From: a virus
UHGV virus genome: UHGV-0136483
Length of the DNA: 15,268 nt
Reading direction: 5' to 3' (one strand)
Shown here in pieces: positions 2,807 through 3,855 of the stretch. Each line of letters opens with the position of its first letter. Within the stretch, counting starts at the first letter, position 1. The translations under genes and the position numbers were made by a program. A model generated the notes under the pieces. The model ran no database searches, was not told where the DNA came from, and saw only the letters and a program-made list of their open reading frames with translations.

Positions 2807-3855
2807 TAGGCAAGCTCCTTTAAAACTTCAGATGATGAATGATGAACATAACTATTAAATACCATTCCAAGTATAGCACTTAAACCATCAACATTTCCTG
2901 GATTAATCATTCTAACATTAACGTCACTGTTTATTTTGCGTATTATTGCATCAATTTCGGCACGATCAACATGCCAATATGAAATACCACAAATGAAGAA
3001 ATCATCGTTTGGGTTGTACGACTCCATCGTCGCTTCAATAGACTCTTTAATTGAATTAGCCCAGTTTTGGGCATAACGATGAGCTTCTCCTGCTGGCGGT
3101 ATTATTGGAATTAATGGCATGTAAAGGCTTAAGTTTTCATGCCGGCATTCGAATTTTGATATGTCGCCATTATTTAAAGATAACTCTTTTTGGATATTGT
3201 AGTTATCTTTTGACATATATCCTTCATACAAGAAGCTAATAGAGCCATGTGGTTTGTATATTTTAAACTTTGCATTCCCGTCAGATATGTTTGGGATGTC
3301 AAATCTGATATTAAGTAAATCAAGAAGGCGCTCAAGATAAATGTCATAGTTATAAGTTATAATATCAACTCGTTCTATGTTTTCGTTTTTGTCCAGTTTC
3401 ATCAAATAGTCTCGCCAGCCACTTTCTAACTTACGTAGATCTTCAGAGGAAACTTTTTCGTTATAATCAATGAAAAGCTCCCTTAAATATGAAACTAATT
3501 CTTGATAAGCATAAATGTAAATGTTTGACAATGGAGTATGACTTGCCTGATTTTTCTTCTTTATTGTTTCTGGAGGTAGAGTTGCATATAAATTTATTAC
3601 TGTAATTAATTCTTCTATTATTTGATATGATGCGGTTCTATTTAGCCCGGGTCTTGCACCCAATCGCCATAGATTTGGGCAATATCGAGCAGAAAGAAAA
3701 CCGGGTTCCCCAGTGGCGGGCCACTTAACCATATCGCCATATTTAAATAGATCGGATGGGTCAATTATATCAAGTTTGTCCATTTTGCTAAGGAGGTCAA
3801 TAGTGAATCCATTCCCAAGCATTAACCCAACTTTCTTTTTTTTTTCGCTGCTCAA
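2806..3855 (-). CDS. SIR2-like (SIR2_2 family, predicted NAD+-binding/NADase fold) protein, 349 aa if the TTG at 3855 is the start; the first ATG is at 3822
   Basis: Three SIR2-type motifs in order: VGLMLGNGFT (GxG Rossmann loop), IITYNYDIYLERLL (TTNYD-like) and KIYKPHGSISF (HGS). The TTG at 3855-3853 is preceded by AAGGA with an 8-nt spacer; the alternative ATG (3822-3820) has a poor RBS. Stop overlaps the DUF262 start. Low GC. Confidence 0.8.
   Translation of the reverse strand: MSSEKKKKVGLMLGNGFTIDLLSKMDKLDIIDPSDLFKYGDMVKWPATGEPGFLSARYCPNLWRLGARPGLNRTASYQIIEELITVINLYATLPPETIKKKNQASHTPLSNIYIYAYQELVSYLRELFIDYNEKVSSEDLRKLESGWRDYLMKLDKNENIERVDIITYNYDIYLERLLDLLNIRFDIPNISDGNAKFKIYKPHGSISFLYEGYMSKDNYNIQKELSLNNGDISKFECRHENLSLYMPLIPIIPPAGEAHRYAQNWANSIKESIEATMESYNPNDDFFICGISYWHVDRAEIDAIIRKINSDVNVRMINPGNVDGLSAILGMVFNSYVHHSSSEVLKELA

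Follow-up and report, generated by a model that had tools for sequence, protein, structure and literature searches.

A length-variable A10 tract at the 5' end of a TTG-initiated SIR2-like gene in an Escherichia coli defence island: a probable replication-slippage hot spot and plausible contingency locus

Can a run of ten adenines in the first codons of a gene switch a candidate defence cassette on and off? The question was raised by the initial annotation of a 15,268-nt stretch of UHGV virus genome UHGV-0136483 (hereafter the window), in which a SIR2-like gene on the minus strand (gene 1), the first of a two-gene cassette completed by a DUF262 gene (gene 2), carries an A10 homopolymer at its 5' end. 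That annotation found a TTG to be the start supported by a ribosome-binding site, regarded the start codon as ambiguous, and proposed that the tract is a slipped-strand site able to switch the whole system on and off. Our reading of the sequence agreed with it as to the A10 (3845-3836) and showed an AAGGA (3867-3863) ahead of the TTG. From the comparison set out below, we take the tract to be a real mutational hot spot, for which a role as a contingency locus is plausible but unproven.

On the minus strand the region around the start of gene 1 reads ...GTAAGGATACTTTTTTGAGCAGCGAAAAAAAAAAGAAAGTTGGGTTAATGCTTGGG..., in which the leader GTAAGGATAC is followed by TTTTTTG AGC AGC GAA AAA AAA AAG AAA GTT GGG TTA ATG CTT GGG AAT GGA TTC. 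The run extends from the last two bases of the Glu4 codon, through the complete codons of Lys5 and Lys6, to the second base of the Lys7 codon. It is the sole run of ten or more in the window, the next longest being of eight, among them T8 runs at 1247-1254 and 13713-13720; at least one A10 or T10 was nevertheless present in 57 of 200 dinucleotide-preserving shuffles of the window (expectation 0.49). The presence of an A10 is thus within chance, and the run deserves notice for where it lies and for how it behaves in other genomes.

The initial annotation had suggested that tract length be compared among isolates and had allowed that it might prove invariant. It is not: A9, A10 and A11 were all found, and the length changes recurrently, on identical haplotypes and within one strain. 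When a 120-nt query centred on the tract was applied to 5426 complete E. coli genomes, the locus was recovered from 27, of which 19 were identical to the window over 120 nt (A10) and eight matched over 119 nt without substitution (A9); A9 accounts for about 30% of the loci found in natural E. coli. The tract was read directly in five A10 and six A9 loci, which confirmed these lengths. A9 was also present in assemblies of short-read style, namely a MEGAHIT contig (k141_), a SPAdes contig (NODE_..cov) and two third-party annotation (TPA) records, A10 in a Logan contig, a TPA assembly and two metagenome contigs, and A11 in one draft (L014). Flanking-pattern scans of GTDB species representatives and of IMG/VR found nothing, and a JGI/ENA metagenome scan yielded three loci only.

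Two different single-nucleotide polymorphism (SNP) haplotypes, defined over 2850-4150, each occurred with both A9 and A10, and therefore at least two independent length-change events have taken place. Two assemblies of strain 744 were identical over 43,101 bases except for T10 versus T9 at the tract; this stretch also contains two G9 runs, an A8 and a T8, none of which differed. The tract was likewise the only indel in the compared region of eight A9 loci; A9 loci are mostly otherwise intact, and no more than a few SNPs separate those compared from A10 loci.

As for the start codon, comparison, together with a structure model, settles on the TTG at 3855 as the real start, with the tract translated and not part of the leader, because the TTG and its Shine-Dalgarno sequence are conserved, the family has a common N-terminus, and the first β-strand (β1) is placed accordingly. 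A TTG following AAGGA or GAGG was found at the homologous position in Proteus mirabilis, P. vulgaris, Providencia, Yersinia, Pectobacterium, the L031 group and Aeromonas, and is thus conserved down to 45% identity (Aeromonas); one orthologous lineage has ATG at that position, and the Yersinia database protein had been called from an internal ATG. Nearly all of 120 homologues open with M-x-(K/R)-K, after which come five hydrophobic residues and then GNGF, and six to nine residues precede the GNG loop throughout the protein family. In an AlphaFold model of the gene 1 product (mean predicted local distance difference test score, pLDDT, 91.6; model numbering is protein numbering minus 1), β1 spans Lys7-Leu13 and leads into the Gly14-Asn15-Gly16 loop, so that a start at Met12 would be predicted to delete five of its seven residues. 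A TTG so old and so conserved suggests that low translation has been selected.

With the TTG as start, the consequences of each tract length were computed. In A9 the TTG frame reads LSSEKKRKLG, ten codons ending at a TAA that overlaps ATG 3822, and in A11, as in A8, it yields an 18-residue peptide ending at a TGA. In neither A9 nor A11 does the main frame have an upstream ATG, GTG or TTG start, and therefore a full-length, family-typical protein can arise by correction only; we infer that both alleles are expressed at a lower level.

Such correction is likely, by analogy with published cases, to leave the out-of-frame alleles leaky, through slippage of RNA polymerase, -1 slippage of the ribosome or re-initiation. 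In A9, a single A added by RNA polymerase would restore the exact wild-type sequence, and an A_AAA_AAA heptamer lies in phase with the TTG frame, where a -1 shift would give the exact wild-type protein; re-initiation at TAATG could give a protein shortened by 11 residues, of doubtful stability. A/T runs of nine or more are a slippage-prone threshold in many bacteria (PMC1088944), A-runs of 9-11 cause substantial slippage of bacterial RNA polymerases, two of the cited cases being enterobacterial (PMC1088944, PMC4256274), an A11 run in Citrobacter (C. rodentium tssM1) gives about 20% transcriptional frameshifting (PMC4256274), and AAA-AAA supports -1 shifting in E. coli (pDEST17; PMC1851650). 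By the same token the A10 allele itself should lose some transcripts to slippage, and the states would be better termed high and low than on and off. A design for programmed slippage would combine an A/T run of nine or more within coding sequence, which the A10 supplies, with a conserved out-of-frame layout of two open reading frames (ORFs), which was not found, the majority allele and all orthologues being in frame. An RNA hairpin pairing the U6 before the TTG with the A10 was considered and rejected, as less structure was predicted for the region than for shuffled sequence (z = +1.18).

We propose, at a probability of roughly 0.6, that the A10, which encodes Glu4-Lys7 near the 5' end of a SIR2-like gene that starts at TTG and heads a two-gene island cassette, would frequently gain or lose one A by replication slippage; that an out-of-frame length would bring the TTG frame to an early stop and reduce the amount of full-length effector; that the low state would probably be leaky and not null, through polymerase slippage, -1 shifting or TAATG coupling onto Met12; and that the tract could thereby act as a heritable, potentially reversible high/low toggle of a probably costly effector that consumes nicotinamide adenine dinucleotide (NAD). 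The coordinates of the features concerned are collected in Table 1.

Table 1. Window coordinates of the tract, of the signals around it and of the two cassette genes
Feature	Positions	Strand	Remarks
A10 homopolymer	3836..3845	-	nt 11-20 of the gene 1 ORF, codons Glu4-Lys7; natural lengths A9, A10, A11
TTG start, SIR2-like gene	3853..3855	-	opens the 349-codon ORF; conserved at the homologous position; choice of the Prokaryotic Genome Annotation Pipeline (PGAP) in A10 genomes
Shine-Dalgarno AAGGA	3863..3867	-	7-nt spacer to TTG; AAGGA or GAGG upstream of TTG in orthologues
A_AAA_AAG heptamer (dnaX-type -1 slippery motif)	3835..3841	-	in zero-frame phase in the A10 allele; slipperiness from published work (PMC1851650, PMC5009743)
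TAATG	3820..3824	-	ATG 3822-3820 is the in-frame internal Met12; TAA 3824-3822 is the TTG-frame stop in A9
TGA	3797..3799	-	TTG-frame stop in A11 (or A8), after an 18-residue peptide
Gene 1, SIR2-like (SIRim/AbiH-like), 349 aa	2806..3855	-	invariant GNG, YNYD and KPHGS motifs
Gene 2, DUF262/GmrSD_N (NsnA-like), 342 aa	1778..2806	-	own AAGGAG at 2815-2820

The tract also affects how the locus is annotated in databases. PGAP assigns to A10 loci a protein of 349 aa from the TTG and to A9 loci one of 338 aa (ATG 3822) or 325 aa (ATG 3783), the choice among these N-termini (WP_000093565, WP_000901352 and WP_225899303, respectively) following both tract length and pipeline version. In the 325-aa form the catalytic Gly-rich loop with its invariant GNG is lost. 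The 338-aa form was considered as a proxy for A9 and discarded as uninformative, the ATG being called on A10 genomes as well, for example ATCC 8739 (A10, 338 aa). Defence-system censuses and cloning experiments could thus unknowingly score or clone a low-expression allele.

The history of the tract was followed among orthologues. The codons concerned are GAG CAA AAA AAG AAA in Providencia (A7), GAG AAA AAA AAG AAA in P. vulgaris (A8) and GAA AAA AAA AAG AAA in E. coli (A10), whereas P. mirabilis, with GAG AAA AAA AAA GTT (A9, in frame, one codon fewer), has the sole comparable run; L030 has A7 and L031 has A6, and no run was found in the Yersinia and Pectobacterium orthologues. On this alignment the Lys-Lys that follows the start family-wide would supply the A-rich codons, and the A10 of E. 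coli is best read as the product of a synonymous GAG>GAA change that fused with the A8 run of Lys codons. The tract would then be of recent origin and not inherited as a conserved regulatory device. Every sampled A7 and A8 locus is in frame, which fits the exponential climb of E. coli indel rates with run length (PMC8510543).

Several points weigh against our conclusion. The long tract is not kept in most orthologues, which have A7, A8 or no run; this speaks against long-term selection for mutability and argues that the tract is a recent by-product, not a conserved regulatory device. Length variability is, moreover, generic to long runs in assemblies of E. coli, irrespective of function: in the core genome the yfdF-fadL intergenic region holds a highly length-polymorphic poly-G run (positions 27924-27932 of L039; G9 in strain 744 and K-12), for which a 121-nt query gave match lengths of 119-124 in 4294 complete E. 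coli genomes, so that polymorphism alone is no proof of selection for switching. Tract lengths were taken from assemblies, which leaves some room for assembly error; L014 has an additional base in an A7 run (A7-to-A8) and L020 a second 1-nt deletion, so that some A9 or A11 calls may be errors, and some records are error-prone or come from mutator strains (L014, L020). No A9-to-A10 reversion event has been demonstrated, and no experiment linking the cassette to phage defence was found.

The rival explanation that survives best, and that we hold to be quite possible, is one-way decay, in which A9 and A11 would be the loss-of-function changes most often seen in an island gene that is dispensable or costly, a pseudogenisation in progress without regulatory meaning. 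It is in keeping with other lesions in the cassette (IS1 inserted within DUF262 in PI12, the 1-nt deletion of L020, the A7-to-A8 change of L014 and an IS3 upstream in RM11911), with the helicase and transposase pseudogenes of the island, and with the distribution of damage, two A9 loci (PI12 and L020) having a second lesion while both genes were annotated as intact in 19 of 19 A10 complete genomes. Set against this, most A9 loci have no further damage, and those compared are separated from A10 loci by few SNPs at most; a single slippage event would repair A9, and the gene could stay under selection through leaky decoding. The numbers in the corresponding test for relaxed selection, a second lesion in one of eight A9 versus none of 19 A10 complete genomes, are too small.

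Doubtful, to our mind, is the stronger proposition of an adaptive contingency locus, in which selection keeps the tract for reversible ON/OFF switching of the SIR2-DUF262 system, the OFF state avoiding autoimmunity or cost, or admitting useful mobile elements, and the ON state protecting against phage. In E. coli with functional mismatch repair an A10 would be expected to slip more slowly than in classical phase-variable species, which tells against it, as do the orthologues with A7, A8, no run or a single in-frame A9, the making of the A10 by one synonymous change, the absence of a demonstrated reversion, the core poly-G run that varies without any such role, and the likely leakiness of the 'off' states. 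In its favour are the placement of the tract, inside the opening 20 nt of the gene that heads a defence-island cassette, the three length states, which have changed recurrently both within one strain and on haplotypes that are identical, and the precedent mentioned for BREX, a homopolymeric tract in brxX (PMC6326788). Of the properties that would mark a phase-variable locus, placement such that length alters expression was found, A9 and A11 cutting the TTG frame at 10 and 18 residues, as was a difference in length among near-identical genomes or within a strain; retention of the tract in orthologues was not.

The switch foreseen in the initial annotation was thus borne out as to recurrent length variation, while on/off control of the whole system is unproven; gene 2 has its own AAGGAG and ATG, and the whole system therefore need not follow gene 1. 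A more elaborate version, which we offer only tentatively as an unlikely one, is control at two levels, with a reversible A9/A10/A11 switch in DNA and a rheostat at the level of RNA and ribosome, working by polymerase slippage and -1 shifting, acting on an unnamed SIR2-DUF262 anti-phage system; if true, both levels, together with the weak conserved TTG, would hold a toxic NADase low and heterogeneous across the population. On a third reading, beside decay and the adaptive switch, the tract may simply be a tolerated hot spot with leaky decoding.

We regard it as improbable that the variation is an artefact, the true length always being A10 and A9 or A11 being homopolymer miscalls. Long homopolymers are often miscalled in long-read assemblies, and the extra single-base indels of L014 and L020 and the noise in the tract region of L013 are in line with this; A9 is, however, present in contigs with MEGAHIT-, SPAdes- or TPA whole-genome-shotgun-style names, was the lone indel in the compared region of eight A9 loci, and separates the two strain 744 assemblies with no other difference in 43 kb, two G9 runs included. 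Least credible is translation from ATG 3822, with the tract an untranslated leader or upstream ORF whose length would have little effect on the protein: ATG is a better start codon than TTG, is often picked by gene callers (the collection has 1456 indexed blocks with the 338-aa form) and becomes coupled through TAATG to an upstream ORF in the A9 allele, but it lacks an upstream Shine-Dalgarno sequence, the K-V-G-L ahead of Met12 is conserved as protein in homologues, the Met12 position is I, V, L or M, and it was ruled out by the conservation of the TTG to 45% identity together with the structure model, from which it would remove most of β1.

One locus stands apart from the rest. L013 (GCA_041227845.1) has neither start codon nor tract, the TTG being replaced by TCT and the A10 by ACGAAAAACT with length unchanged; it also has a GG insertion at 4030, a deletion of C at 3951 and a G>A change at 3977 (window-equivalent positions). 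All ten differences lie within about 200 nt (window-equivalent 3836-4030), and the other ~3.8 kb are identical. Long-read noise could account for this allele, as could a patch brought in by recombination or a 'locked' state that was engineered or selected.

The cassette to which the tract belongs is a widespread and uncharacterised pair. A protein search (E up to 0.001) returned 691 homologues of the SIR2-like protein, and in 100 homologues the G-N-G, (N)Y-D and K-P-H-G-S motifs were invariant or nearly so. Pfam matches of gene 1 were below threshold (AbiH 9.7e-5, 23 bits versus a cutoff of 30.9; SIR2_2 0.003, 18.2 versus 24.5), and PADLOC matched it to generic SIR2 models only, even at E up to 10. 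With its AlphaFold model, the best Foldseek match had an E of 6e-9 and a template-modelling (TM) score of about 0.5 (8sub); the top 35 PDB matches were SIR2 proteins of SIR2-HerA/Nezha, followed by KomBC and DSR2.

Gene 2 matched Menshen NsnA over its full length (1.9e-39) and PD-T4-2_A (1.4e-27), and its ATG overlaps the gene 1 stop by 1 nt (TAATG). The same pair, always with the 1-nt overlap, was found in Proteus, Providencia, Yersinia, Pectobacterium, two further lineages and Aeromonas (45% identity), in neighbourhoods that are otherwise unrelated and rich in integrases and toxin-antitoxin genes, only the pair being conserved. A TTG start is usual on gene 1 across pair-carrying loci (window 1778-3855; L023-L053), which range from Enterobacterales to Aeromonas. 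No named system in PADLOC matched the pair, NCBIfam gave nothing useful, and no paper on a SIR2 plus DUF262 pair was found in the literature; the pair is a plausible candidate for an uncharacterised defence module. A promoter scan of the region gave 11 matches against 11.1 expected, which is chance level, and no transcription start was placed. The best sigma-70-like match (TTAGCA, 16-nt spacer, TG-TATAAT, 10/12; window 3764-3791, minus strand) is inside gene 1, downstream of Met12 and Met24, and could make gene 2 transcription independent of the tract or could be a chance occurrence in AT-rich DNA.

The cassette is situated in an island of distinct composition, positions 1000-4000 having 33-35% guanine plus cytosine (G+C) within DNA of roughly 43-52% G+C. 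In E. coli the pair adjoins an integrase, whose domains are Arm DNA-binding, central and catalytic, and the site is the tRNA-Arg gene beside yfdC. CBASS-like and Qat genes follow in the island of one genome. Near 5944, within the attachment region at tRNA-Arg (argW), the window ceases to match E. coli FDAARGOS_1257; ARAGORN predicted no intact tRNA. Downstream, within 5944-15268, lies the early-left region of a lambdoid prophage, with Ead/Ea22 (8085-8945), ERF recombinase (10416-11051), DUF2528 (12574-12942) and a CI-like repressor with S24 and helix-turn-helix domains (14206-14856); defence island and prophage appear to be integrated in tandem at argW. Flanking pseudogenes were annotated in L001 (a DEAD/DEAH helicase, frameshifted and with an internal stop, and a truncated transposase; window 48-949, 4043-4413), and some strains have IS1, IS3 or IS1203 insertions. 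The island is being eroded.

Phase-variable restriction-modification (R-M) genes are well known in Haemophilus, Neisseria, Helicobacter and Campylobacter, and homopolymer variation of defence genes, familiar in those genera, is seldom considered in E. coli. The locus described here is a fresh example of a known phenomenon, and would be a concrete, naturally polymorphic one from E. coli. As in the phase-variable R-M genes and in BREX, for which a homopolymeric tract in brxX has been mentioned (PMC6326788), a defence-island gene has a mononucleotide run in the 5' part of its coding sequence, a one-base change shifts the frame, and several lengths occur among close relatives. It differs from both in its E. 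coli host, in having 10 A's only, in that the run is not kept in orthologues and in that the off states here are probably leaky.

A second comparison is with sites of transcriptional slippage, namely C. rodentium tssM1 (A11; PMC4256274), Shigella mxiE (T9) and Thermus dnaX (A9; both PMC1088944). Here, as there, a run of at least nine bases lies in a bacterial coding sequence (enterobacterial in tssM1 and mxiE), mRNAs of mixed length are expected, and out-of-frame alleles can still yield full-length protein. Those genes, however, have a fixed out-of-frame or dual-product layout that needs slippage, whereas here, with an in-frame reference allele, the effect of slippage would be limited to attenuating A10 or rescuing A9 and A11. 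With respect to the ribosome, the in-phase heptamer of the A10 allele is identical to the A_AAA_AAG of E. coli dnaX, and the A_AAA_AAA of A9 resembles the AAA-AAA of pDEST17 (PMC1851650); here, by contrast, no stimulatory Shine-Dalgarno sequence or hairpin is evident, the region being less structured than shuffled sequence, and any ribosomal shifting would be at a basal level.

The proteins themselves invite two further comparisons. The modelled gene 1 product shares with SIR2-HerA/Nezha, DSR2, ThsA and AbiH a SIR2-like Rossmann fold with GNG, N-Y-D and K-P-H-G-S motifs, and a setting in a defence island; no NADase or defence assay was found in the literature for its family, and it differs from SIR2-HerA in that its partner is a DUF262 protein and not HerA, and in that its Pfam matches (AbiH, SIR2_2) are below the gathering thresholds. 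Gene 2, like Menshen NsnA and component A of PD-T4-2, encodes DUF262 without DUF1524, but in contrast to Menshen (NsnABC) and PD-T4-2 it has no NsnB, NsnC or PD-T4-2_B partner, its only conserved neighbour being the SIR2-like gene.

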